A stretch of DNA of 32,689 bases, taken from IMG/VR virus record IMGVR_UViG_2859783438_000003; one strand, given 5' to 3'. The notes below the pieces were generated by a model. It saw only the letters and a list, made by a program, of their open reading frames with translations. It had not been told where the DNA came from and did not search any database. This DNA is from a virus (Duplodnaviria; Heunggongvirae; Uroviricota; Caudoviricetes). Each line of letters starts with the position of its first letter. The stretch's first letter is position 1. Of the stretch, positions 3,948 through 31,511 are shown piece after piece. The translations under genes and the position numbers were made by a program.

Positions 3948-5006
3948 GTGCGGGTATTACTTCGACCTGTTCTGGTACCGGAACTCGGTCTGGTTATCGT
4001 TAAGCCAGGCCGTGAATCAATGTCAGCATTCCATAACGGCAGAATACTGGTGGAGCCGGAACCAAAAAGCATGCGTAATCTGCCGTCCGGGGTCGTTCCT
4101 GCCGCTCGCCAGCCGCTGGTGGAAGACAAAACATTGCTGCCGTTTTTCAGTAACGCACGGGTGATTCGTGCTGCTGGTGGTGCTGGTGCATTGTCTGACT
4201 GGCTGTTGCGCCATATTAAATCCTGCCAGTGGCCACACGGCGATTATCATCACAGCGAAACCGTCATTCACCGTTATGGTACCGGCGCAATGGTGTTGTG
4301 CTGGCACTGCGACAACCAGCTGCGTGACCAGACATCCGAATCACTCGAGCAACTTGCTCATCAAAACCTGTCAGCATGGATGATTGACGTCATCGGTCAC
4401 GCAATAAGCGGTACGCAGGAGCGTGAATTATCTCTGGCTGAATTATCCTGGTGGGCGGTCCGCAATCAGGTGGCGGACGCGCTACCGGAAGCGGTATTAC
4501 GTCGTTCGCTGGGGTTGCGTGCGGAAAAAATTCGCTCTGTGTACAGTGAAAGCGACATCATACCGGGAGAGCAGACAGCCACCAGCATACTGAAGCAGCG
4601 CACAAAAAATATTGCGTTACTGCCTCACGTCCACCAGCAACAGAACCCACCACAGGAAAAGACGGTGGTCAGCATTGCCGTTGATCCGGAGTCACCGGCT
4701 CAGTATCTCCAGCGCCAGAAATCACAACGGGAAGAGATGCCTGTATACACGCGCTGGGTAAAAACGCAGAAATGCATGACGTGTGGCAATCAGGCAGATG
4801 ATCCGCATCACATCATTGGTCATGGACTGGGAGGGATGGGAACAAAGGCTGATGATTTGTTTGTTATTCCGTTATGCCGTAAATGCCGTAACGAACTACA
4901 TGCCGGAGTAAAAGATTTTGAAGAGAAACACGGCAGTCAGCTGTTGTTGCTGATTCGTTTTTTAATGCACGCGAGAAATTCGGGTGTTCTGAAGTGGAAA
5001 GCATAA
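3948..5006 (+). CDS. DUF968 / YdfU-like phage protein with C-terminal HNH-like zinc motif
   Basis: C-terminus CMTCGNQADDPHHIIGHGLGGMGTKADDLFVIPLCRKCRNELH; sits directly upstream of rusA as in lambdoid nin regions; true start may be an internal Met. Confidence 0.7.
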   Translation: MRVLLRPVLVPELGLVIVKPGRESMSAFHNGRILVEPEPKSMRNLPSGVVPAARQPLVEDKTLLPFFSNARVIRAAGGAGALSDWLLRHIKSCQWPHGDYHHSETVIHRYGTGAMVLCWHCDNQLRDQTSESLEQLAHQNLSAWMIDVIGHAISGTQERELSLAELSWWAVRNQVADALPEAVLRRSLGLRAEKIRSVYSESDIIPGEQTATSILKQRTKNIALLPHVHQQQNPPQEKTVVSIAVDPESPAQYLQRQKSQREEMPVYTRWVKTQKCMTCGNQADDPHHIIGHGLGGMGTKADDLFVIPLCRKCRNELHAGVKDFEEKHGSQLLLLIRFLMHARNSGVLKWKA

Positions 5007-5387
5007 ATGACCGAGCGCATAGAATTTGTTTTACCTTACCCGCCGACGGTGAACACTTACTGGCGTCGTCGTGGCAGCACATATTTTGTATCAAAAGCCG
5101 GGGAGCGTTATCGCCGGGCAGTGGCGCTTATTGTTCGCCAGCAGCGGCTGAAATTAAGCCTGTCCGGAAGGTTGGCAATAAAAATTATTGCAGAACCACC
5201 GGATAAGCGCCGCCGTGACCTGGACAATATTCTGAAAGCGCCGCTGGATGCGCTGACGCATGCGGGGTTGCTAATGGACGATGAGCAGTTTGATGAAATC
5301 AATATCGTTCGTGCTCAGCCAGTATCTGGTGGACGTCTGGGGGTGAAGATTTATCCCATAATGCTTGAAGGGCAGGTCAAAAAATGA
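5007..5387 (+). CDS. rusA: RusA-type Holliday junction resolvase
   Basis: Translation has LPYPPTVNTYWRRRG... and RRRDLDNILKAPLDALT, matching the RusA fold and catalytic Asp region. Confidence 0.85.
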   Translation: MTERIEFVLPYPPTVNTYWRRRGSTYFVSKAGERYRRAVALIVRQQRLKLSLSGRLAIKIIAEPPDKRRRDLDNILKAPLDALTHAGLLMDDEQFDEINIVRAQPVSGGRLGVKIYPIMLEGQVKK

Positions 5388-6205
5388 AACTGGAAGATTT
5401 ACCGAAATACTACTCCCCAAAATCCCCCGGCCTGACTGATGCATCGGCCTCAACGTCGAAAGATGCGCTGAGTATCACTGATGTGATGGCCGCGCAGGGC
5501 ATGACACAGAATCGGGCTGAGATGGGGGTTTCTGCGTTCCTTGGGAAAATGGGCATTAGTATGAATGACAGAGAGCGGGCAACAGAATTGCTGACAGAAT
5601 ATGCACTCAGTCGGTGTGATCGCGTGGCGGCGTTAAGAAAACTCCCGGCAGAAATAAAACCGGCAGTGATGCGTATTATGGCTTCGTATGCGTTTGAAGA
5701 TTATGCCCGTAGCGCGGCGAGCAAAAAACAGTGCCCCTGCTGTCACGGAAAAAAATTTATTGAAAGCGAGGTTTTTACAAACAAGATCCAGTATCCGGAT
5801 GGTAAGCCGCCGGTATGGGCAAAGTGTACGAAAGGTGTGTATCCGTCTTACTGGGAAGAATGGAAAAAAGTCAGGGAGGTGGTAAAAGTTGCCTGTCCGG
5901 AGTGTGGCGGAAAGGGTGAGGTTTCCACCGCCTGTAAGGATTGCCGTGGGCGTGGTGTCGCCATTCATCGTGAAGAGTCGGTAAAACGTGGTATGCCTGT
6001 TATCAGAGACTGCCAGCGTTGTGGTGGTCGTGGCTATGAAAGACTACCATCAACGGAGGCATTTAATGCTATATGCGAGGTGACAAACCAGATAACACGC
6101 GCGTCATGGGAAAAAACAGTTAAGAAATTTTATGATGCGCTGGTGACCCGGTTTGATATTGAAGAAGCATGGGCTGAGCGGCAGTTAAAAAAGGTAACTA
6201 GGTAA
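5384..6205 (+). CDS. late antiterminator Q (Cys-rich, zinc-binding)
   Basis: 273 aa with several CxxC pairs (CPCCHGKK, CPECGGKG, CKDCRGRG, CQRCGGRG); position directly after rusA and before a PR'/tR'-like pair. Confidence 0.7.
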   Translation: MKLEDLPKYYSPKSPGLTDASASTSKDALSITDVMAAQGMTQNRAEMGVSAFLGKMGISMNDRERATELLTEYALSRCDRVAALRKLPAEIKPAVMRIMASYAFEDYARSAASKKQCPCCHGKKFIESEVFTNKIQYPDGKPPVWAKCTKGVYPSYWEEWKKVREVVKVACPECGGKGEVSTACKDCRGRGVAIHREESVKRGMPVIRDCQRCGGRGYERLPSTEAFNAICEVTNQITRASWEKTVKKFYDALVTRFDIEEAWAERQLKKVTR

Positions 6206-6210
6206 CAAGG

Positions 6211-6238
6211 TTGATTTTTCCGGAATCTGTGGTAAATT
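6211..6238 (+). promoter_or_regulatory. candidate late promoter PR' (TTGATT, 16-17 nt spacer, TAAATT)
   Basis: Hexamers read directly downstream of Q; TAAATT is the lambda PR' -10 as I recall it; the qut site is not delimited. Confidence 0.4.
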
Positions 6239-6287
6239 CGTCATAACGATGGGCGTTTTATGCCTGACGTTAGAAGAGTTTCTACAA

Positions 6288-6309
6288 CCCGCCGCCGAGC
6301 GGGTTTTTT
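6288..6309 (+). terminator. tR'-like intrinsic terminator
   Basis: GC hairpin cccgccgccgagcggg followed by tttttt about 50 nt after the putative start site. Confidence 0.5.
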
Positions 6310-6429
6310 ATGACTGAAATCGCGTCAGTACAGTAAACGCGCTGGTGGCGGTGAATACCTGTCTTTCAGCTTGCTGGCTTTTTCGACAAGAGTTATTGGT
6401 GTGTCACGTTAACCGGAAAAGGAAAAGAC

Positions 6430-6627
6430 ATGCTAAAACAGCAGGATATGACAGAAACCGCCAGAGTGGTGTTTAATGAATTAAGCGTTACCGAACCGGC
6501 GACAGTCGGGGAGATAGCGCAGAATACTTACCTTTCACGCGAACGCTGCCAGTTAATACTGACCCAGCTGGTTATGGCGGGTCTGGCAGACTATCAGTTC
6601 GGTTGTTACAGACGCCTTCCGCAGTGA
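6430..6627 (+). CDS. small putative HTH DNA-binding protein (65 aa)
   Basis: ORF from track; ATVGEIAQNTYLSRERCQLILTQL resembles a helix-turn-helix; followed by hairpin gccttccgcagtgaaggc plus T-run. Confidence 0.4.
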   Translation: MLKQQDMTETARVVFNELSVTEPATVGEIAQNTYLSRERCQLILTQLVMAGLADYQFGCYRRLPQ

Positions 6628-6777
6628 AGGCTTTTTTATTTGTGGTAAATGGGCGGCTGGTGGGTGTTAGGGGCACCCACCAGCCATCTGCTCATGCGTT
6701 GGGTTCACAAGCAAACCTCAGGCCCACTGCTTTGCGCAAAAGCAGAATGAGCCTATCAGAGACAGGCTTAATGATCC

Positions 6778-7836
6778 ATGCTTAATACTGTAAAAATATC
6801 CAGTTGTGAGTTAATCAACGCCGACTGCCTGGAATTTATCCGGTCGTTACCCGAAAATTCTGTTGACCTGATAGTCACGGACCCGCCGTACTTTAAAGTG
6901 AAGCCTGAGGGCTGGGATAACCAGTGGAAGGGCGACGATGATTACCTGAAGTGGCTGGACCAGTGTCTGGCGCAGTTCTGGCGGGTGCTGAAACCTGCCG
7001 GAAGTCTTTACCTGTTCTGTGGTCATCGCCTGGCATCTGATATCGAAATCATGATGCGTGAACGCTTCAGTGTGCTGAACCATATTATCTGGGCGAAGCC
7101 GTCCGGACGCTGGAACGGATGCAACAAGGAAAGCCTGCGGGCGTATTTCCCCGCCACAGAGCGCATTCTGTTCGCGGAACATTATCAGGGGCCGTATCGT
7201 CCGAAAGATGCCGGGTATGCGGCGAAGGGCAGTGCACTGAAACAGCATGTGATGGCCCCGCTGATTTCTTACTTTCGTGATGCGCGAGCTGCCCTGGGGA
7301 TAACGGCAAAACAGATTGCAGATGCCACAGGAAAGAAAAACATGGTGTCGCACTGGTTCAGTGCCGGTCAGTGGCAGTTGCCGAATGAAAGCGATTATCT
7401 GAAATTACAGGCGCTGTTTGCCCGGGTGGCAGAAGAGAAGCATCGGCGTGGTGAACTGGAAAAGCTCCACCACCAGCTGGTGGATACGTATACCTCACTG
7501 AACCGGCAGTATGCGGAGCTGCTGAGTGAATATAAACATCTGCGGCGGTATTTTGGCGTGACGGTGCAGGTGCCGTATACCGATGTGTGGACGCATAAAC
7601 CGGTGCAGTTCTATCCCGGGAAACATCCGTGCGAAAAACCGGCAGAAATGCTGCAGCAGATAATCAGCGCTAGCAGTCGTCCGGGTGACCTGATTGCAGA
7701 TTTTTTCATGGGGTTGGGTTCGACAGTGAAAGCGGCACTGGCGCTCGGGCGTCGTGCAATTGGCGTTGAGCTGGAGACTGAACGTTTTGAGCAGACGGTT
7801 CGGGAAGTACAGGATTTAGTCAGCCAGAACGGATGA
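6778..7836 (+). CDS. DNA amino-methyltransferase (N6-adenine or N4-cytosine), orphan
   Basis: DLIVTDPPYF (motif IV) near the N-terminus and FFMGLGST (SAM-binding FxGxG) near the C-terminus; no restriction endonuclease gene adjacent. Confidence 0.8.
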   Translation: MLNTVKISSCELINADCLEFIRSLPENSVDLIVTDPPYFKVKPEGWDNQWKGDDDYLKWLDQCLAQFWRVLKPAGSLYLFCGHRLASDIEIMMRERFSVLNHIIWAKPSGRWNGCNKESLRAYFPATERILFAEHYQGPYRPKDAGYAAKGSALKQHVMAPLISYFRDARAALGITAKQIADATGKKNMVSHWFSAGQWQLPNESDYLKLQALFARVAEEKHRRGELEKLHHQLVDTYTSLNRQYAELLSEYKHLRRYFGVTVQVPYTDVWTHKPVQFYPGKHPCEKPAEMLQQIISASSRPGDLIADFFMGLGSTVKAALALGRRAIGVELETERFEQTVREVQDLVSQNG

Positions 7837-7876
7837 TATTGAAGAATTAATTACGCGTCGTTATTATGCGGCTCCC

Positions 7877-7952
7877 GGCCCTTTAGCTCAGTGGTGAGAG
7901 CGAGCGACTCATAATCGCCAGGTCGCTGGTTCAAATCCAGCAAGGGCCACCA
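7877..7952 (+). tRNA. tRNA with CAU anticodon (Met or lysidine-type Ile2)
   Basis: Cloverleaf folded by hand: 7-bp acceptor ggccctt/aagggcc, anticodon loop ctCATaa, T-loop ttcaaat, CCA encoded. Confidence 0.8.
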
Positions 7953-7959
7953 TCACATA

Positions 7960-8036
7960 CCGCCATTAGCTCATCAGGAAAGAGCGCCAGCCTTCGAAGC
8001 TGGCTGCGCGGGGTTCAAGTCCCCGATGGCGGTCCA
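7960..8036 (+). tRNA. tRNA-Arg (anticodon UCG)
   Basis: Acceptor ccgccat/atggcgg, anticodon stem ccagc/gctgg with loop ctTCGaa, T-loop ttcaagt, CCA encoded. Confidence 0.75.
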
Positions 8037-8049
8037 TTATCTGCATCAT

Positions 8050-8126
8050 GCGTTGTTAGCTCAGCCGGACAGAGCAATTGCCTTCTAAGCAATCGGTCAC
8101 TGGTTCGAATCCAGTACAACGCGCCA
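8050..8126 (+). tRNA. tRNA-Arg (anticodon UCU)
   Basis: Acceptor gcgttgt/acaacgc, anticodon stem attgc/gcaat with loop ctTCTaa, T-loop ttcgaat, CCA encoded. Confidence 0.8.
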
Positions 8127-8140
8127 CACTTATTTTCCCT

Positions 8141-8167
8141 GGCTCGCTTTTGCGGGCCTTTTTTTTT
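8141..8167 (+). terminator. intrinsic terminator after the tRNA array
   Basis: Hairpin ggctcgc-tttt-gcgggcc followed by a 9-nt T-run. Confidence 0.6.
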
Positions 8168-8173
8168 AAATGT

Positions 8174-8400
8174 CTCACAATTCAGACGGTTGACAGTTGT
8201 CTGTTTTGCGGGGAGTTTGTTAAAAGAAACTGGCATGGTGAATCCCCCTGTGCGGAGGGGCAATCAGCGAGTAGGTATATGGGATAATCGCGGATTCAGG
8301 TGCTGGTACTGAATTCACCGGGAGGCACCCGGCATCATGCAATGGCACATAGCGCCACTCTCCAGCCCTCTCCGGAGGGGCTTTTCTGTGCCGGATACAT
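8174..8400 (+). ncRNA. structured non-coding module A (candidate sRNA or regulatory leader)
   Basis: TTGACA hexamer near the 5' end, three GC hairpins (cccct/agggg; ccggg/cccgg; ccctc/gaggg + T-run); paralogous to module B; no conserved ORF. Confidence 0.25.
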
Positions 8401-8640
8401 CACAGTTTCTGGAACCTTAGGTACTACAGTATCAGTCAGGGTGCTATATTTTCAGATGTGATGAAAGCCTGTCAGCAGGCAGGGCGTATCGGAAATGACC
8501 CAGTAGAGAAAACGTTGACTCAGATACCGGTGCTGAGTTACCGGGAAACCGGCATCACATGACCGCTATCCTTCCAGGCCCATCCGCTCCGGTGGGCCTT
8601 TTTACTGCAGAAAACAGGTTCCCCGTTAAATGCTATGTTG

Positions 8641-8880
8641 CTCACAATTCAGTAAGTTGACAGTTGCCTGTCAGACTGGGCATTTGTTAAAAAAATTTCG
8701 CATGGTGAATCCCCCTGAGCGGAGGGGCGACTGGTGACGGTATAATCTCTGATTATCAAAACGAGAATGACGCGGGTTTAGTGGCACCGGGCTGAACTCA
8801 CCGGGAGGCACCCGGCACCATGTGCATGATGATACAGATACGCGGCTTTAGCCCCTCTCCGGAGGGGTTTTCTTGTGGGC
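8641..8880 (+). ncRNA. structured non-coding module B (paralogue of A)
   Basis: Same block order as A (ctcacaattcag, gttgacagttg, tttgttaaaa, gcatggtgaatccccctg.gcggaggggc, caccgggaggcacccggca, cccctctccggagggg + T-run); preceded by its own hairpin + T-run. Confidence 0.25.
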
Positions 8881-9102
8881 AAAAAAAGCCCGCGCTGGGA
8901 GACGCGGGCGGCAAGGAATAAACAATAAAACGTGAAGTAATATTTCAGCTGGCGAATAATACCCCATAGTAATCACTCTGCGCAACTGCGCGGTCTTTTT
9001 CGAATTGCGGGCTGTCGTCTCTCTTCTGCCATTGTCCTGTAACTTCCGGACTTCAGCCCGCTCCTTATTTTACTCACAATATTATCCCGGCCGGGAGGAT
9101 TC

Positions 9103-10956
9103 ATGGCATTTAAACACTATGACGTGGTCAGGGCGGCATCGCCGTCAGACCTTGCGAAACGACTGACACAAAAACTGAAGGAGGGCTGGCAGCCGTTTGG
9201 TAGTCCGGTGGCCATAACCCCTTATACCCTGATGCAGGCGATTGCAGCAGAAGGTGATGTGGTCGTCAGTGGTGCAACTGAGCCGGAGTGGTACTACGTC
9301 ATCGTACTGGCCGGGCAATCCAATGCCATGGCTTACGGTGAAGGTCTTCCGCTTCCGGATTCATACGATGCGCCCCATCCGCGCATTAAGCAACTGGCCC
9401 GTCGTAACACAGTGACTCCCGGTGGTGAAGTATGCGTATTTAACGACATCATTCCTGCTGACCATTGTCTGCATGATGTTCAGGATATGAGTACGATTAA
9501 CCATCCCCGGGCTGACCTGAGCAAAGGGCAGTACGGCTGTGTCGGACAGGGCTTACATATTGCCAAAAAACTGCTTCCGTATATCCCTAATAATGCGGGG
9601 ATCCTGCTGGTACCATGCTGTTGTGGTGGTTCGGCATTCACCCAGGGCACGGAGGGGACATTCAGCGAGTCCACGGGGGCCAGTCAGGATTCGGCTCGCT
9701 GGGGAGTGGGTAAGCCGTTATATCAGGATCTGCTTTTCCGCACGAAGGCAGCATTGCAGAAAAACCCGAAAAACGTTTTGCTGGCGATATGCTGGATGCA
9801 GGGGGAATTCGATATGACGAATGCCAGTTACGCCCAGCAGCCAGCAGCATTTCTTGCAATGGTACAGCAGTTCCGTGCTGACCTTGCCGGGCTGGCGGCG
9901 CAGTGTCACGGTGGAAGTCCGGCATCAGTCCCCTGGATTTGTGGCGACACGACATACGCGTGGAAACAAGAACACGGTACGCAATATGAAGTGGTATATG
10001 GTGCATATAAAGGTAAAGAATCCCAGCAGATTTATTTTGTTCCCTTTATGACCGATGGTAGCGGAGTTAATACACCGACAAACAACCCGTCAGAAGATCC
10101 TGATATTGCCGGGTCTGGTTATTACGGTTCGGCATCCCGAACGAACAAAAACTGGGTATCATCAAATCGCCCGACGCATTTCAGCTCATGGGCGCGTCGT
10201 GGCATTATTCCCGATCGTATGGCAACTGCTATTCTGAACGTAGCCGGTCGCACCTTAGCCTTCATTAGTGGTAAGGCACCGGAAATCAAACCCTCGCCCG
10301 GCGGCGACACGCCATCGGGGCCGTCTGAAGATGCATCCATACGCACAATCTCCCTGTTGCCGACAGCCGGAGACGCTGCTGCGCAGGGCTGGAGCATTAA
10401 GAATGGCGGAGTTCAGTTGTCAGATGGTGTATTTAAGATCACCAAGCAGAGCAATAAAGCCTGGTCCCTGACGCGCCCGGTGGATGACGCAGTCTCCCTG
10501 CTGACACGGGGTGGCAGACTGAGCTGTAAGTTTCGACTGTCAGGCGCACTGACCAACAACCAGTTCGGTCTGGGAATTTATCTGTATACCGATGTAGCGT
10601 TACCTGACGTCGTGGCGATGACCGGGACTGGTAACCCGTTCCTGATGTCGTTCTTCACCCAGACCACAGACGGCAAACTGAATCTGATGCATCACAAGAA
10701 AGCAGGAAACACAAAGTTGGGCGAGTTCGGGAATTACAGTAACGACTGGCTGACGCTGGAGCTGGTGTTCACCGCCGGCAGTGCCACGGTTACTCCGAAA
10801 CTGAATGGAGTGGCTGGCCCGGCATTCCAGGTCATAAAAGACAGTCTGACACTGGGGCTGAATGCGCTGACGCTGACGGATATTACCAAAAATGCAGCGT
10901 ATGGCGTTGAGATAGAAAGTCTGGTGCTGGAGATAAATGCACCGGCATCATCATAA
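9103..10956 (+). CDS. NanS-p-like sialate O-acetylesterase (DUF1737 N-terminal domain + SGNH/SASA esterase core)
   Basis: 617 aa; N-terminus MAFKHYDVVRAASPSDLAKRL... and VIVLAGQSNAMAYGEG with the SGNH-type Ser; sits where prophage nanS-p genes sit downstream of the Q-tRNA block. Confidence 0.8.
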   Translation: MAFKHYDVVRAASPSDLAKRLTQKLKEGWQPFGSPVAITPYTLMQAIAAEGDVVVSGATEPEWYYVIVLAGQSNAMAYGEGLPLPDSYDAPHPRIKQLARRNTVTPGGEVCVFNDIIPADHCLHDVQDMSTINHPRADLSKGQYGCVGQGLHIAKKLLPYIPNNAGILLVPCCCGGSAFTQGTEGTFSESTGASQDSARWGVGKPLYQDLLFRTKAALQKNPKNVLLAICWMQGEFDMTNASYAQQPAAFLAMVQQFRADLAGLAAQCHGGSPASVPWICGDTTYAWKQEHGTQYEVVYGAYKGKESQQIYFVPFMTDGSGVNTPTNNPSEDPDIAGSGYYGSASRTNKNWVSSNRPTHFSSWARRGIIPDRMATAILNVAGRTLAFISGKAPEIKPSPGGDTPSGPSEDASIRTISLLPTAGDAAAQGWSIKNGGVQLSDGVFKITKQSNKAWSLTRPVDDAVSLLTRGGRLSCKFRLSGALTNNQFGLGIYLYTDVALPDVVAMTGTGNPFLMSFFTQTTDGKLNLMHHKKAGNTKLGEFGNYSNDWLTLELVFTAGSATVTPKLNGVAGPAFQVIKDSLTLGLNALTLTDITKNAAYGVEIESLVLEINAPASS

Positions 10957-11041
10957 AAAGTGAGCCAGCCAAATGGAAGGTATCGTTAAACTCACCGGTA
11001 GTGTCAGTGGGTCGTCTGAGATGCCTGCATGAGTTATCAGA

Positions 11042-11071
11042 GCCATCAGTACTTAACTGGTGGCTTTTTTT
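11042..11071 (+). terminator. intrinsic terminator between nanS-p and S
   Basis: Hairpin gccatcag...ctggtggc followed by ttttttt; lies inside the upstream extension of the holin ORF, arguing for the 11107 start. Confidence 0.4.
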
Positions 11072-11106
11072 ATTGTTGTCAGCTTCCGGATAACGGGAGA
11101 CGGGGT

Positions 11107-11322
11107 ATGTACCAGATGGAAAAAATCACAACAGGTGTGTCATACACCACGTCAGCGGTGGGAACGGGCTACTGGTTCCTGCAGTTGCTGGACAGGGTTT
11201 CCCCGTCTCAGTGGGCGGCAATAGGCGTGCTGGGGAGTCTGCTGTTTGGGCTGCTGACATATCTGACTAACCTGTATTTCAAAATCAGAGAGGACCGTCG
11301 TAAGGCTGCACGGGGAGAGTAA
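11107..11322 (+). CDS. S: holin S, class II / pinholin-like (S21 type), dual-start motif
   Basis: [71 protein letters not shown]; two TM segments and a charged C-terminus; Met1/Met4 dual start. Confidence 0.8.
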
Positions 11323-11326
11323 TTCA

Positions 11327-11641
11327 ATGACTCAAAACTATGAACTGATTGTGAAAGGGATCCGCAATTTTGAGAATAAAGTTACGGTAACTTTAGCGTT
11401 ACGGGACAAAAAACGCTTTGACGGTGAAATTTTTGACCTGGACATCTCGCTGGACCGTGTTGAAGGTGCCGCGCTGGAGTTTTATGAGGCAGCAGCCAGA
11501 AGGAGCATCAGACAGGTCTTCCTGGATGTTGCTGCCGGGTTATGTGAAGGGGACGAGCTGTTGCCAGAAACGCGCCCCTGTTCAGAGGCGCGGTATACCA
11601 TAAAAATTAACAGTTCTGATAACTCGATTACGGGTTGTTAG
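11327..11641 (+). CDS. YdfR-like protein (DUF1327) between holin and endolysin
   Basis: 104-aa ORF in the holin-to-endolysin position, as in cryptic lambdoid prophages of E. coli; assignment by position and recollection, not by search. Confidence 0.5.
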   Translation: MTQNYELIVKGIRNFENKVTVTLALRDKKRFDGEIFDLDISLDRVEGAALEFYEAAARRSIRQVFLDVAAGLCEGDELLPETRPCSEARYTIKINSSDNSITGC

Positions 11642-11696
11642 CTTTTTGCAGTTGGCTTTCCAGTATCTTTCATTGGTAGCATCCTGATAAATATCC

Positions 11697-11750
11697 ATGA
11701 GCGCAAAAATCAAATACGGCCTGTCAGCTGCTGTTCTGGCGCTGATTGCA
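11697..11750 (+). pseudogene. R: SAR endolysin R, only the N-terminal signal-anchor retained
   Basis: Frame opens MSAKIKYGLSAAVLALIA, then loses lysozyme-like sequence and stops after 56 codons inside a tandem repeat. Confidence 0.5.
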
Positions 11751-11873
11751 AAATGGCATCTGAATCGATCGCAGTTTGGCATTCGAATCGATCATGATTT
11801 GGCATCCATCTCCGATCACAGTTTGGCATCACAATCGATCACGATTTGGCATACTTCCGATCATTGATTGGAA
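11751..11873 (+). repeat. five tandem 23-24-bp direct repeats (TTTGGCAT..ATCGATCA..A), each with a GATC, ending at the gap
   Basis: Units read at 11751, 11775, 11798, 11822, 11845, then ttggaa and the N run. Confidence 0.8.
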
Positions 11874-11973
11874 NNNNNNNNNNNNNNNNNNNNNNNNNNN
11901 NNNNNNNNNNNNNNNNNNNNNNNNNNNNNNNNNNNNNNNNNNNNNNNNNNNNNNNNNNNNNNNNNNNNNNNNN
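11874..11973. other. assembly gap (100 N), size unknown
   Basis: Run of N between the tandem repeats and an inverted IS3-family left end. Confidence 0.95.
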
Positions 11974-12145
11974 AAGAGATAATCGGGAAGCGCCTTCACT
12001 GATCGAAAGTTGATTTTCAAGAACCGTTCTGACAGCTTCGGCTTTGAACTCTTTAGAGTAACGTTGGGTTTTTCTGCTCATTATTAGCTCCTTCTGATGC
12101 CATTCTATTTCAGGAAGGAGTGTCCGTTAAACTCAGGCTACCTCA
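11974..12145 (-). mobile_element. IS3-family (IS600-like) left end, second copy, inverted relative to 1507..1955
   Basis: Reverse complement of the 1507..1680 sequence (1 mismatch seen); orfA N-terminus MSRKTQRYSKEFKAEAVRTVLENQLSISEGASRLSL on the minus strand; terminal ...cctca at 12145. Confidence 0.75.
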
Positions 12146-12292
12146 GCCGGAAGAACAGACTGGCTTCCTCTCTGTTCATCGGCAGATAGCCTATTTCATC
12201 CAGGATCAACACCCGGGCATAACTCAGTTGCTGTAGCTGACGCTCCAGCCGGTTTTCCTGTTTCGCTTTCAATGTAAAAGTCCTCTCTGCTC
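12146..12292 (-). pseudogene. fragment of an IS21-family IstB-like AAA+ helper gene
   Basis: Minus-strand translation ...KQENRLERQLQQLSYARVLILDEIGYLPMNREEASLFFRL has the LILDE.GY Walker-B signature; stop just upstream and the IS3-family end downstream. Confidence 0.4.
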
Positions 12293-12395
12293 AGCATGTT
12301 GATGTCCTTTCTGGTGTGAGAACCTTAAGGAAACAACATGTTGGGTGGAGCGGACAATCCAAATGGCGAATTACCGTCTTATATCACTGGCGCTG

Positions 12396-12473
12396 ACATC
12401 TCCGGATGACGGGGGCAGCTGTTATCTCTGGCTCAACCGTGGGCAACCACCCGCAGTTAACCGGCGACGATAA
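12396..12473 (+). pseudogene. 3' remnant of a lambda FII-like head-tail joining gene
   Basis: Translation ...SPDDGGSCYLWLNRGQPPAVNRRR* resembles the lambda FII C-terminus; no similarity further upstream. Confidence 0.5.
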
Positions 12474-12487
12474 ACGCAGGGTGAATT

Positions 12488-13063
12488 ATGGCGATAAAAG
12501 GGCTTGATCAGGCGATTGACAATCTGAGCCGGGTTCGTAAAAACGCCATTCCGGCTGCTTCTGCAATGACCATTAACCGCGTGGCCACAACGGCGATTAA
12601 TCAGTCTTCGTCACAGGTTGCCCGGGAAACCAGGGTGAGACGGAAACTGGTAAAGGAACGGTCCAGACTGAAACGGGCGACGGTCAGAAATCCGAATGCC
12701 AGAATTATCGTTAACCGCGGTGATCTCCCTGTGATTAAGCTGGGGATCAGAATGCTGGGGCGTCGTCCGAACAGCATACTCAAAGCCGGTCAGCATCGTT
12801 ATCAGCGGGCATTTATCCAGCGATTAAATAATGGGCGCTGGCATGTTATGCAACGTCTTCCCCAGGCCAGATATGAGGAGGGCAATGACGACAAGGGAAG
12901 GAAAAAGCGTAATCGCCTTCCCATTCAGGTGGTGAAAATCCCGATGGCGGCCCCACTGAAACAGGCATTTGATGAGAATGTTGACCGTATCCGGCGTGAA
13001 CGCCTGCCTAAAGAACTGGCATACGCGCTGAAACAACAACTGAGGATTGCGATAAAACGATGA
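12488..13063 (+). CDS. Z: tail completion protein Z
   Basis: MAIKGLDQAIDNLSRVRKNAIPAASAMTINRV... and C-terminal [23 protein letters not shown] closely resemble lambda gpZ. Confidence 0.85.
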   Translation: MAIKGLDQAIDNLSRVRKNAIPAASAMTINRVATTAINQSSSQVARETRVRRKLVKERSRLKRATVRNPNARIIVNRGDLPVIKLGIRMLGRRPNSILKAGQHRYQRAFIQRLNNGRWHVMQRLPQARYEEGNDDKGRKKRNRLPIQVVKIPMAAPLKQAFDENVDRIRRERLPKELAYALKQQLRIAIKR

Positions 13064-14660: not shown

Positions 14661-15100
14661 ACTTTGCCCTCAGACTGGCGCGTGAGATGGGGAGACCCGA
14701 CTGGCGCGCCATGCTTGCCGGGATGACATCCACCGAATATGCCGACTGGCGCCGTTTTTACCGCACGCATTATTTTCAGGATACCCAGCTGGATATGCAT
14801 TTTTCCGGGCTGACGTACGCTGTACTCAGCCTGTTTTTTTGCGATCCGGATATGCATCCCTCTGATTTCAGTCTGCTTGTCCCCCGGCATGAGGAAGAGC
14901 AGGTGGAGAGGCCGGATGAGGACAAAATGCTGATGCAGAAAGCGGCAGGACTTGCCGGAGGCGTCCGGTTCGGTGGGGACGGAGGGCGCGATATTTTATC
15001 GTCTGCGGATGTGGCGGATGTCATGGTGGATGATGCCGCATTAATGATGGCTTCAGCGGGGATTCCGGGAGGTGTGAGATATGTCCCAGCCGGTTGGTGA
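14229..15100 (+). CDS. T: tail assembly chaperone G-T, made by programmed -1 frameshift at G GGA AAG (14636..14642)
   Basis: Slippery heptamer in the zero frame of G; the -1 frame continues GKVFDGELNFALRLAREMGRPDWRAMLAGMTSTEY..., matching lambda gpT. Confidence 0.75.
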
Positions 15101-18008
15101 TCTTGTTATTGACCTGAGTCTGGATGCTGTCCGTTTCGATGAGCAGATGAGCCGGGTAAGGCGTCATTTTTCAGGTCTGGATACCGACGCCAGAAAAACC
15201 GCCAGTGCTGTTGAACAGGGCCTGAGCCGCCAGGCGCTGGCTGCACAAAAAGCCGGGATTTCCGTCGGGCAGTATAAAGCGGCCATGCGAACCCTGCCCG
15301 CACAGTTTACGGATATCGCCACGCAGCTTGCCGGTGGTCAGAATCCCTGGCTGATCCTGCTGCAACAGGGCGGTCAGGTGAAGGACTCCTTCGGCGGGAT
15401 GATCCCCATGTTCAGGGGGCTTGCCGATGCGATCACCCTGCCGATGGTCGGGGTCACCTCGCTGGCGGTGGCGACAGGTGCACTGGTGTACGCCTGGTAC
15501 CAGGGAGATTCCACGCTTTCAGCGTTTAATAAAACCCTGGTTCTTTCCGGTAATCAGTCCGGACTGACTGCCGATCGTATGCTGACTCTCTCAAGAGCCG
15601 GGCAGGCAGCAGGGCTGACGTTTAACCAGGCGAGAGAGTCACTGGCAGCCCTGGTGAATGCCGGTGTGCGTGGTGGTGAACAGTTTGATGCCATCAACCA
15701 GAGTGTCGCGCGTTTTGCGTCTGCATCCGGTGTGGAGGTGGATAAAGTCGCTGAAGCCTTCGGGAAGCTGACCACTGACCCGACGTCGGGACTGATGGCG
15801 ATGGCGCGCCAGTTCCGTAACGTGACGGCAGAGCAGATTGCGTATGTTGCACAGCTGCAGCGTTCCGGAGACGAGGCCGGGGCATTGCAGGCGGCGAACG
15901 ATATCGCCACGAAAGGCTTTGATGAGCAGACCCGTCGCCTGAAAGAAAACATGGGAACACTGGAGACCTGGGCGGATAAAACAGGGAAGGCATTCAAATC
16001 GATGTGGGATGCCATTCTGGATATCGGTCGTCCGGAATCCTCAGCGGATATGCTCGCCAGTGCGCAGAAGGCATTTGATGAGGCGGATAAAAAATGGCAG
16101 TGGTACCAGAGTCGGAGCCAGCGCCGCGGTAAAACCTCCTCTTTCCGGGCCAACCTTCAGGGCGCATGGGATGACCGGGAAAATGCCCGTCTGGGTCTGG
16201 CAGCGGCAACGCTGCAGTCGGATATGGAAAAAGCCGGTGAACTGGCGGCAAGGGACAGGGCTGAGCGTGAGTCGTCACAGCTGAAGTATACCGGAGAGGC
16301 GCAGAAGGCGTATGAGCGCCTGCTGACGCCACTGGAGAATGCAGTCGGATATGGAAAAAGCCGGTGAACTGGCGGCAAGGGACAGGGCTGAGCGTGAGTC
16401 GTCACAGCTGAAGTATACCGGAGAGGCGCAGAAGGCGTATGAGCGCCTGCTGACGCCACTGGAGAAATATACCGCCCGGCAGGAAGAGCTGAATAAGGCC
16501 CTGAAAGACGGGAAAATCCTGCAGGCGGATTACAACACGCTGATGGCGTCGGCAAAAAAGGATTATGAGTCGACGCAGAAAAAGCCGTCCGGTGTGAAGG
16601 TGTCTGCCGGTGAGCGCCAGGAAGACCAGGCGCATGCAGCCCTGCTGGCGCTTGAAACTGAGCTCAGGACGCTGGAGAAGCACAGCGGTGCGAATGAAAA
16701 AATCAGCCAGCAGCGCCGTGATTTATGGAAAGCGGAAAATCAGTATGTNNNNNNNNNNNNNNNNNNNNNNNNNNNNNNNNNNNNNNNNNNNNNNNNNNNN
16801 NNNNNNNNNNNNNNNNNNNNNNNNNNNNNNNNNNNNNNNNNNNNNNNNAAGACCAGGCGCATGCAGCCCTGCTGGCGCTTGAAACTGAGCTCAGGACGCT
16901 GGAGAAGCACAGCGGTGCGAATGAAAAAATCAGCCAGCAGCGCCGTGATTTATGGAAAGCGGAAAATCAGTATGTGGTCCTGAAAGAGGCCGCCACGAAA
17001 CGGCAGTTATCTGAGCAGGAAAAATCCCTGCTGGCCCATGAGAAAGAAACGCTGGAGTACAAACGCCAGCTGGCTGAGCTGGGCGACAAGATTGAACACC
17101 AGAAACGGCTGAATGAGCTGGCACAGCAGGCGGCGCGGTTTGAACAGCAGCAGAGCGCGAAGCAGGCGGCAATCAGCGCAAAAGCCCGCGGACTCACCGA
17201 CCGTCAGGCGCAGCGGGAGTCGGAAGAGCAGCGCCTTCGTGAGGTGTACGGTGATAATCCGGCTGCGCTGGCGAAGGCCACATCTGCACTGAAGAACACC
17301 TGGTCTGCGGAGGAGCAGCTTCGTGGAAGCTGGATGGCCGGGATGAAGTCCGGCTGGGGCGAGTGGGCGGAAAGTGCGACGGACAGTTTTTCGCAGGTTA
17401 AAAACGCGGCCACGCAGACCTTTGACGGTATTGCACAGAATATGGCAGCGATGCTGATCGGCAGCGAACAGAACTGGCGTGGTTTCACCCGTTCTGTGCT
17501 GTCCATGCTGACAGAGATTTTTCTGAAGCAGGCGATGGTGGGGATAGTCGGGAGTATCGGCAGCGCCATTGGCGGTGCTTTCGGTGGTGGTGCGTCTGCC
17601 TCCACGGGGACGGCCATTCAGGCTGCGGCGGCGAACTTCCATTTCGCGACCGGGGGATTTACGGGGACGGGGGGTAAATATGAACCTGCGGGGATTGTTC
17701 ATCGCGGGGAGTTTGTCTTCACGAAGGAGGCGACCAGCCGGATTGGTGTCGGCAATCTGTACCGCCTGATGCGGGGCTATGCGGAAGGTGGTTATGTCGG
17801 CGGTGCCGGAAGTCCGGCGCAGATGCGGCGGGCGGAAGGCATTAATTTTAATCAGAACAATCACGTGGTGATTCAGAACGACGGCCCCAACGGGCGGGCA
17901 GGGCCGCAGCTGATGAAAGCGGTGTATGAGATGGCCCGCAAGGGGGCACAGGATGAACTCCGGCTGCAGTTGCGTGATGGCGGTATGTTATCAGGGAGCG
18001 GTGGATGA
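15081..18008 (+). CDS. H: tail tape measure protein H (reading frame broken in this assembly)
   Basis: N-terminus MSQPVGDLVIDLSLDAVRFDEQMSRVRRHFSG and C-terminus ...NNHVVIQNDGPNGRAGPQLMKAVYEMARKGAQDELRLQLRDGGMLSGSGG resemble lambda gpH; split into three track ORFs by a 125-bp tandem duplicate and an N gap. Confidence 0.8.
16214..16463 (+). repeat. 125-bp tandem duplication inside H (16214..16338 and 16339..16463) that shifts the frame
   Basis: Two adjacent near-identical copies differing by one base at the junction; the frame-0 ORF stops at 16367 and a frame-1 ORF restarts at 16339. Confidence 0.8.
16749..16848. other. assembly gap (100 N) inside H, flanked by an identical 127-bp direct repeat (16622..16748 and 16849..16975)
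   Basis: The 127 bases before and after the N run read identically, typical of overlapping contig ends that were not merged. Confidence 0.85.
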
Positions 18009-30920: not shown

Positions 30921-31190
30921 ATGCTGCCGCAGCATAGCGATATTGAAATAGCCTGGTATGCTTCGATACAGCAGGAGCCGAATGGCTGGAAGACCGTCAC
31001 CACACAGTTCTACATCCAGGAATTCAGTGAGCATATTGCGCCACTTCAGGATGCTGTAGATCTGGAGATCGCAACGGAGGAAGAAAACTCGTTGCTGGAA
31101 GCCTGGAAGAAGTATCGGGTGTTGCTGAACCGTGTTGATACATCAACTGCACCTGATATTGAGTGGCCGGAAGAACCAGACACAATGTAA
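30921..31190 (+). pseudogene. tail fibre assembly protein fragment (C-terminal half only)
   Basis: Ends ...[37 protein letters not shown] like Tfa C-termini; lacks the conserved N-terminal ...KNI.AGNP.. region. Confidence 0.55.
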
Positions 31191-31411: not shown

Positions 31412-31511
31412 NNNNNNNNNNNNNNNNNNNNNNNNNNNNNNNNNNNNNNNNNNNNNNNNNNNNNNNNNNNNNNNNNNNNNNNNNNNNNNNNNNNNNNNNN
31501 NNNNNNNNNNN
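31412..31511. other. assembly gap (100 N)
   Basis: Run of N between an IS110-like start and an IS1 3' part. Confidence 0.95.

Follow-up and report, generated by a model that had tools for sequence, protein, structure and literature searches.

We analysed a 32,689-nucleotide (nt) stretch of viral DNA (IMG/VR record IMGVR_UViG_2859783438_000003; hereafter the window), and in particular the block at positions 6206-10956, which contains a 65-residue (65-aa) winged-helix open reading frame (ORF), a 352-aa DNA methyltransferase, three transfer RNA genes (anticodons CAU, UCG and UCU) and a 617-aa NanS-p esterase; it is flanked by the antiterminator Q with a PR'/tR' pair on one side and by a P21-type holin on the other. 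This block is very probably an ordinary accessory-gene ("moron") region, placed where the late operon begins in an stx-negative, now defective, lambda-like Escherichia coli prophage. As read from the sequence, it matches Shiga toxin (Stx) phages except in the toxin slot, where four small-RNA (sRNA) genes stand in place of stx. Gene content, homologies, joints and codon bias were established directly, and all that is said of expression and activity is deduced. An earlier reading of the window, made without database searches (the sequence-only reading), had described a Stx-phage-style late cargo block without the toxin; every feature that it named was found where it had been placed, and the architecture of the Stx2a phage Stx2_EH1910 (LC567834) matches. 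Features below lie on the + strand unless the minus strand is named.

Comparison of the Q-to-nanS-p segment with Stx phages showed that Stx2_EH1910 has the same backbone: its Q (273 aa), 65-aa ORF, methylase (352 aa) and three tRNAs correspond to those of the window, with 93.8% nucleotide identity between Q and the end of the tRNA cluster terminator; stx2AB, STnc100 and nanS-p come next. The order shared by the window with this phage and with the prophage in strain 00-3076 of STEC (E. coli producing Shiga toxin) is Q, PR'/tR', 65-aa ORF, methylase, tRNAs, STnc100, nanS-p and P21-type holin. Homology with Stx2 phages stops at 8164, in the T run of the strong terminator of the tRNA cluster (8141-8167, hairpin scan), which is the left joint of the stx slot, and restarts about 4 bases short of a 29-nt box (TCACAATTCAG...TTGACAGTTG), which lies where the single STnc100 gene of Stx2_EH1910 has its 5' edge. 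The stx2AB genes of that phage lie exactly between the equivalents of window positions 8164 and 8642. The box is present twice in the window, at 8175 and 8642, and the extra 477 bases in the window slot are those at 8165-8641. Relative to Stx2a phages the window is without stx2AB and iraM, and has instead an extra STnc100 copy, a diverged unit and an sRNA of the EcOnc08/21/42 type. The nanS-p gene is itself mosaic relative to the Stx2_EH1910 allele, being 77% identical over the first 1.1 kb and without a nucleotide match in the C-terminal domain. Further states of the slot are seen in PPwrbA_EH2201 (three tRNAs and a single STnc100), in PPyecE_EH1910 (no tRNAs; a toxin-antitoxin pair, terB, STnc100 and AgvB) and in PhiR5_2 (two STnc100 copies). 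On the alignments, the stx slot represents a single state of a hypervariable site for cassettes, which has the tRNA terminator as its left border and the STnc100 gene as its right border.

The same arrangement is widespread among stx-negative prophages. That of E. coli 042 (NC_017626, 1415652-1421911) is 97.6% identical to window 5384-11400, and it and about 350 other genomes are collinear with the window and carry all four sRNA units. Among 5,426 complete E. coli genomes, 353 cover at least 80% of the slot, with identities of up to 99.4%, and 792 cover at least 80% of the whole block. In the 25 best-matching complete genomes the block is 97.8-98.5% identical, and these genomes come from human, poultry, swine, wild-goose and seawater isolates. 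Every component and the overall layout are already known from the literature, and near-identical copies are common.

The comparison points to the window slot as an established stx-negative cassette state and not a simple deletion derivative of a Stx phage, because it holds no stx2 remnant and no Stx phage was found with the searched part of the extra bases. A search of the window for remnants of stx2AB and iraM gave only tblastn matches at E >= 0.37, and with blastn-short nothing beyond the terminator that both share and the 29-nt box, save for a single 14-nt match at 15851 (E 0.14) that we attribute to chance. There is no stx2AB ORF in the window; stx1 was not searched by sequence, but the largest ORF in the slot is at most 82 aa. 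The part of the extra 477 bases that was searched, 8394-8640, has no Stx phage match among 50,697 phage records. Some observations do lend themselves to the view that this is a former Stx-converting phage which lost stxAB by deletion, the block being a decayed toxin locus: the Q-methylase-tRNA backbone also occurs in Stx2a phages (PMC10462455), the prophage has suffered at least one large deletion associated with insertion sequences (IS) elsewhere, and the repeat of the 29-nt box at 8175 and 8642 could support recombination. A clean deletion would, however, leave the tRNAs and one STnc100 gene, as in PPwrbA_EH2201, and the tRNA-nanS-p interval, proposed as the place to look for a deletion scar, has the 477 extra bases and sRNA genes instead. 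The slot flanks, moreover, are about 94% identical to Stx phages as against 98-99% to those of many E. coli prophages that have this slot and are stx-negative, and loss of stx by deletion is in our judgement very unlikely. The sequence-only reading had held that whether the lineage never had stx or lost it could not be decided from the window; the comparison, by disfavouring simple deletion, narrows that question to whether stx was never present or was exchanged long ago.

The 976 bases from the tRNAs to nanS-p are dense with RNA genes, and the earlier reading of this interval as terminators only needs refining, since it holds four sRNA units. Two of them are clear members of the STnc100 family (RF02076, gathering score 47 bits): copy 1 at 8204-8393 (123.6 bits) and copy 2 at 8671-8880 (161 bits), the latter being the orthologue of the copy downstream of stx2B and 84-87% identical to the STnc100 of Stx2_EH1910. 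Between them lies a diverged STnc100-like unit (8432-8605, with its own terminator at 8576-8599) that scores 30.1 bits against RF02076, below the gathering score (E 4.5e-5 in a local search), and keeps all helices of the model, so that it resembles a family member in all but the formal cutoff; its stand-alone fold is marginally better than shuffles (z -1.93). Pairwise identity among the three units is 57-68%, and the middle unit was found in only 5 phage records, all of phages that do not convert with Stx. Enteropathogenic E. coli (EPEC) has a validated, Hfq-dependent sRNA, PasD2, that is located just upstream of a nanS-p gene and scores 41.4 bits against RF02076, also below the gathering score. 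This agrees with the proposal that PasD and STnc100 share an ancestor (bioRxiv 10.64898/2026.05.13.724894). We considered whether a unit of the window might be PasD itself and rejected this, since the PasD northern probe has no match anywhere in the window. In the RefSeq annotation of E. coli 042 the orthologous sRNA region is essentially blank.

The fourth unit is a convergent sRNA on the minus strand (8881-9062), with a terminator running from 8909 to 8888 that abuts that of STnc100 copy 2, a promoter-like site at 9109-9081 and a fold z-score of -2.75. Its sequence from 9062 to 8881 is identical at 171 of 182 bases (94%) to NC_011601 1444797-1444978, the Hfq-associated sRNA candidate E2348C_1409.E2348C_1408.IGR from sequencing of ligated, interacting RNAs (RIL-seq) in EPEC, which that study lists as a homologue of EcOnc08/21/42 of enterohaemorrhagic E. 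coli (EHEC). The northern probe for EcOnc08/21/42 (Tree 2014) matches at 30 of 35 positions at 8955. The promoter-like site overlaps the ribosome-binding site and start codon of nanS-p, so that the convergent sRNA and nanS-p could interfere with each other. In position and orientation this sRNA matches the AgvB/AsxR class, and the flanks are conserved; assignment to that class (RF02702, RF02703) was rejected, as Rfam gave no hit at E <= 1 and the body of the RNA bears no relation to it. A shorter transcript of about 70 nt from TTGCGC-18-TATTAT was also dropped, because by the probe and the EPEC coordinates the RNA runs across that site and is about 182 nt long. STnc100 of PPyecE_EH1910 has AgvB as its convergent partner (96.5 bits; 4964-5025, minus strand, of the examined segment); the flanks of AgvB align with the window and the body is replaced, so that the locus carries alternative sRNA alleles behind a shared promoter region.

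For the STnc100 units, a sigma-70 promoter built on the perfect TTGACA in the 29-nt box was considered and rejected for want of a usable -10 element. A PasD2-like start at CATGGTGAATCC (8234 and 8701), preceded by TGtTAAAAR, is possible and unproven. Binding of RpoN to STnc100 has been reported in Salmonella; a sigma-54 site was looked for at the STnc100 units of the window and gave no convincing match.

The upstream border of the block carries the signals expected of a late operon. Q (5384-6205, 273 aa, four CxxCxGxG motifs) matches PF03589 over its full length (E 1.6e-53), together with a DnaJ_CXXCXGXG match (a DnaJ-like zinc centre) at 30 bits, slightly below the Pfam cutoff, and shares 258 of 273 residues with the Q proteins encoded by Stx2_EH1910 and by the prophage of E. 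coli 042. This rare 273-aa type was found in only one Stx2a prophage, that of strain 00-3076 (Pascal et al. 2023), and the backbone of 273-aa Q and 352-aa methylase is carried by a Stx2a prophage (PMC10462455). Directly after the Q stop codon we read a PR'-like late promoter (6211-6250), with a -35 element TTGATT at 6211-6216, a 16-nt spacer and an extended -10 element TGgTAAATT at 6230-6238. A pause element AACGAT follows at 6245-6250, presumed +1 to +6, where AACGATGGG starts six bases past the -10; lambda PR' reads TTGACT-17-TAAATT, six bases and then AACGATGGG, so the offset of AACGAT from the -10 is the same. In lambda, AACGAT is a -10-like element that keeps sigma-70 at the promoter-proximal pause, where Q loads. 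The intrinsic terminator tR' lies at 6286-6311 (a 7-bp stem at 6286-6305, then a T run), and the presumed PR' leader (6245-6311, about 67 nt) folds at -21.4 kcal/mol with a z-score of -2.47 against shuffles.

An alignment of five phages over 6195-6311 supports the pairing of Q with this site. The promoter segment is conserved only in the phages with the 273-aa Q and is unrelated in those with a 126-aa Q; the tR' hairpin and all downstream sequence are common to all five, across Q types. The mosaic joint thus lies just before tR', and Q and the promoter exchange together as one module, which fits the prediction for a genuine PR'. The claim of a PR'/tR'-like pair is in this way backed by the promoter, the pause element at the lambda offset, the covariation with Q type and the terminator. 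The block was also said to be punctuated by terminators, and the hairpin scan agrees: 5300-11700 contains 21 terminator-like hairpins, about three times the 7.0 +/- 2.6 of shuffled sequence.

The methylase (6778-7836, 352 aa; PF01555, E 7.9e-42) confirms the DNA methyltransferase of the sequence-only reading and can be assigned to the beta-class N6-adenine enzymes of the M.EcoGII type. It is identical to M.EcoGII, for which the reference sequence was taken from the supplement of PMC11551740, at 324 of 349 residues (93%), and it shows the beta-class motif order (N-terminal DPPY, central target-recognition domain, C-terminal FxGxG), DPPY beginning at residue 35 and FMGLG at residue 310. With the methylase of phage 1720a-02, named as a very similar enzyme in the M.EcoGII paper (PMC5778455), identity is 95%. 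Adenine methylation by M.EcoGII is independent of sequence context; the enzyme is silent in the lysogen and harmful if expressed constitutively (PMC5778455). Because of this homology, the window enzyme is predicted to be a late-expressed, context-free N6-methyladenine (m6A) methylase that would shield progeny DNA from restriction. The promoter scan found no promoter-like site on the + strand upstream of the gene.

The three tRNAs noted between Q and the holin were all called by ARAGORN and Rfam (58-72 bits): one with anticodon CAU (7877-7952), tRNA-Arg(UCG) (7960-8036, Rfam 58 bits) and tRNA-Arg(UCU) (8050-8126, Rfam 70 bits). A promoter-like site (TTGAAG-17-TATTAT, 7839-7867; a match to consensus only) lies just 5' of the cluster, and this site and the downstream terminator may frame the cluster as an autonomous unit. 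The CAU tRNA is of the tRNA-Ile2 (ileX/ileZ) type, predicted to be lysidine-modified, because it is identical to K-12 ileX at 68 of 76 bases (89%); its orthologue is labelled tRNA-Ile by PGAP. Its acceptor stem, GGCCCUU/AAGGGCC, contains the pairs C4-G69 and C5-G68, which are reportedly determinants for TilS. Codon usage was compared between 7,384 codons of 28 prophage ORFs and 12,865 codons of 34 K-12 core genes. Enriched in the prophage were ATA (odds ratio 3.1, p 9e-8), AGA (8.4, p 1e-11), AGG (14, p 4e-13) and CGG (2.6, p 2e-10); the value for CGA was 1.25 (p = 0.42). Of the rare codons that the tRNA set was proposed to read, ATA and AGA are accordingly enriched and CGA is not: the set fits the prophage codon bias for ATA, AGA/AGG and CGG, not specifically for CGA.

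The 617-aa protein (9103-10956) had been called a NanS-p-like esterase, and its SASA domain is present within a three-domain architecture: DUF1737 (residues 3-50, 57 bits), the SASA catalytic domain of a sialate O-acetylesterase and a C-terminal lectin-like DUF6645. Residues 59-379 match NanS/YjhS (3PT5, E 4.9e-121) and residues 421-613 match the solved NanS-p C-terminal domain (6YP6, 8e-30). An SGNH-type block I, GQSN, is found at residue 71, and block IV (RxxH) reads RPTH, the same variant as in Stx2 phage 86. Transcription of nanS-p goes up under phage-inducing conditions in Stx2a strains (PMC10462455), and no promoter-like site was found by the promoter scan on the + strand upstream of the gene.

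The 65-aa ORF between Q and the methylase (6430-6627) had been read as a winged-helix protein, and the predicted fold bears this out. The match to Pfam TrmB is weak (18 bits, below the 25.6 cutoff); that to phrog_331 is strong (1.4e-37), and 334 homologues are found in prophages of Escherichia, Salmonella, Klebsiella and Citrobacter, some of them named 'TrmB family' or 'DprA-like winged helix' at NCBI. An AlphaFold2 model computed with 20 homologues as input (predicted local distance difference test, pLDDT, 89.3) has a helix, a short strand, two further helices and a beta-hairpin wing, that is, a three-helix bundle with a wing, and Foldseek places it closest to the winged-helix domains of IclR and MarR regulators (best match IclR 2g7u, template-modelling score, TM, 0.82). 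A stand-alone winged-helix protein is supported because the phrog_331 match and homologue names, the modelled topology and the IclR/MarR fold matches all point to it. An intrinsic terminator (6614-6637, hairpin scan) lies over the 3' end of the ORF.

Downstream of nanS-p, the late operon is cut short. The P21-type class II holin (11107-11322, ORF from 11029; PF04971, 2.3e-32; the 042 orthologue is a coding sequence of 216 nt) is followed by a YdfR/DUF1327 protein (11327-11641; PF07041, 5.1e-39), the last late gene before a deletion. Positions 11642-12487 contain a masked run and IS fragments, which are minus-strand ORFs resembling IS3-family OrfA and IstB, and lambda-type tail genes come directly after them: Z at 12488, followed by U, V, G, T, H and L and by the tail fibre. 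The 042 relative retains endolysin, Rz, terminase, portal and head genes, which the window copy has lost. Because the endolysin-to-head genes are absent, the prophage is, judged by its gene content, defective and unable to make phage. It follows that the methylase, tRNAs and NanS-p cannot serve a lytic cycle and that only lysogen-state functions are selectable; the sRNAs are most plausibly such functions still under selection.

The following scheme would account for expression of the block. In the lysogen, PR' would fire and RNA polymerase would halt at tR', yielding the leader RNA of about 67 nt. After induction, Q would modify the polymerase paused at AACGAT, and the modified enzyme would read through about eight intrinsic terminators. 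Read-through would deliver the 65-aa winged-helix protein; the M.EcoGII-type methylase, which would blanket replicating phage DNA with m6A and blunt host restriction; tRNAs decoding ATA (Ile2 CAU), CGG/CGA (Arg UCG) and AGA/AGG (Arg UCU); NanS-p, which would de-O-acetylate sialic acids and, by way of DUF1737, might attach to the capsid as well; and the genes for lysis. Both the tRNA cluster and the four sRNA genes, which carry their own terminators and candidate promoters, are probably expressed in the lysogen too, the sRNAs as Hfq-dependent regulators. The proposed Q-dependent expression of the block fits the data on homologues (PMC5778455, PMC10462455).

Several points weigh against this reading of the block as the head of a late operon. 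The hexamers of PR' are weak (8 of 12 matches, with the 16-nt spacer), and a promoter scan of the region failed to pick up the site; the promoters of the sRNAs are not assignable with confidence, and read-through by Q, the use of the promoters and the 5' ends of the sRNAs are predictions. CGA, one codon for the UCG tRNA, is not enriched in the 28 prophage ORFs, and the host codon baseline consists of 34 K-12 genes. The window prophage is without endolysin, Rz, terminase, portal and head genes, and the roles of the methylase, tRNAs and NanS-p that would benefit a phage are no longer realisable by this copy.

This last point leads to the alternative that the block mainly consists of autonomous lysogenic-conversion units transcribed from their own promoters, Q antitermination being irrelevant to its present function. 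Such units would be the only ones selectable in a defective prophage; the tRNA cluster has its promoter-like site and terminator, each sRNA unit ends in its own terminator, and in EHEC and EPEC without induction, homologues of these sRNAs are found in abundance and bound to Hfq (PMC4104026, PMC8550237). The protein-coding genes, however, fit this alternative poorly: neither the methylase nor nanS-p has a promoter-like site upstream on the + strand, expression of M.EcoGII is absent from its lysogen and harmful if constitutive (PMC5778455), and nanS-p rises under inducing conditions (PMC10462455). With Q, PR' and tR' all intact as well, we consider this alternative unlikely. A separate question concerns NanS-p, which may be a virion component rather than pure cargo, because the DUF1737 domain of its phi24B homologue gp84, a self-processed protein, decorates the capsid hexons by cryo-electron microscopy (bioRxiv 10.64898/2026.04.10.717836). 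Under this alternative nanS-p would be a structural late gene whose product decorates the capsid through DUF1737, present here at residues 3-50, the esterase acting on the virion or after self-cleavage. Phi24B, however, is a short-tailed T=9 phage, whereas in the window the tail genes (Z, U, V, G, T, H, L) are of lambda type and those for the head have been deleted; that soluble NanS-p helps lysogens to grow is claimed separately in the literature. A structural role is conceivable on this evidence, with the balance still somewhat against it, and we retain the reading of an accessory-gene region at the head of a presumably Q-controlled late operon.

Other features of the window lie outside this argument. 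Four runs of exactly 100 N (727-826, 11874-11973, 16749-16848 and 31412-31511) presumably reflect masking. The tape-measure region (15081-18008) is read as three overlapping ORFs (428, 214 and 427 aa) around the masked run at 16749-16848, and this split could be a frameshift or a masking artefact. A sok antitoxin RNA is found at 2795-2970 (Rfam, 112 bits), and hokD is annotated at the matching place in the 042 relative, indicating that a hok/sok type I toxin-antitoxin system sits in the nin region. An IS009 RNA lies at 30944-31147 (Rfam, 129 bits), past the tail-fibre genes.

As a discovery the block carries little weight, because its layout, methylase, tRNAs, NanS-p and both sRNA classes have been described and it occurs in hundreds of E. 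coli genomes. Its value is as a clean comparison, in which the late region of Stx phages appears as a shared chassis with stx as one interchangeable cassette, and stx-negative relatives fill the toxin slot with regulatory RNAs. This bears on the movement of stx between phage backbones and on annotation pipelines, which leave the 1 kb of the slot blank. One could imagine the toxin slot as a small "sRNA island", its three STnc100 paralogues and convergent sRNA having diversified for different host targets and the conserved 29-nt box serving as the joint at which stx and other cassettes are swapped; we rate this as a speculative proposal with the odds clearly against it.

Set beside known systems, the components of the block show both close kinship and clear differences. 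Phage 933W reportedly carries an ileZ-argN-argO tRNA cluster, a type present in the Stx2 phages examined, and the window has the same CAU, UCG and UCU trio directly upstream of the stx position, with only stx absent. With M.EcoGII of E. coli O104:H4 C227-11 the window methylase shares the beta-class motif order and the prophage setting in addition to 93% identity; it differs by 25 substitutions, 3 additional C-terminal residues and, in the SAM-binding motif, FMGLG where M.EcoGII has FMGSG. In Stx phages PR' is reportedly constitutive and its transcript ends at tR', yielding the sRNA StxS (PMC7547250); the leader here, at 67 nt, is much shorter than the 258 nt of StxS. EHEC prophages have pairs of convergent sRNAs in their moron site, 3' of PR' (PMC4104026), and like the EHEC pairs EcOnc27/AsxR and AgvB (Tree et al. 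2014), the sRNA genes of the window lie between moron genes and nanS-p, with back-to-back terminators and with one sRNA on the PR' strand and one convergent. Unlike those pairs, the convergent partner is of about 182 nt and of the EcOnc08/21/42 type, not an anti-sRNA of 51-60 nt of the AgvB/AsxR type, and the + strand carries three paralogues instead of one.

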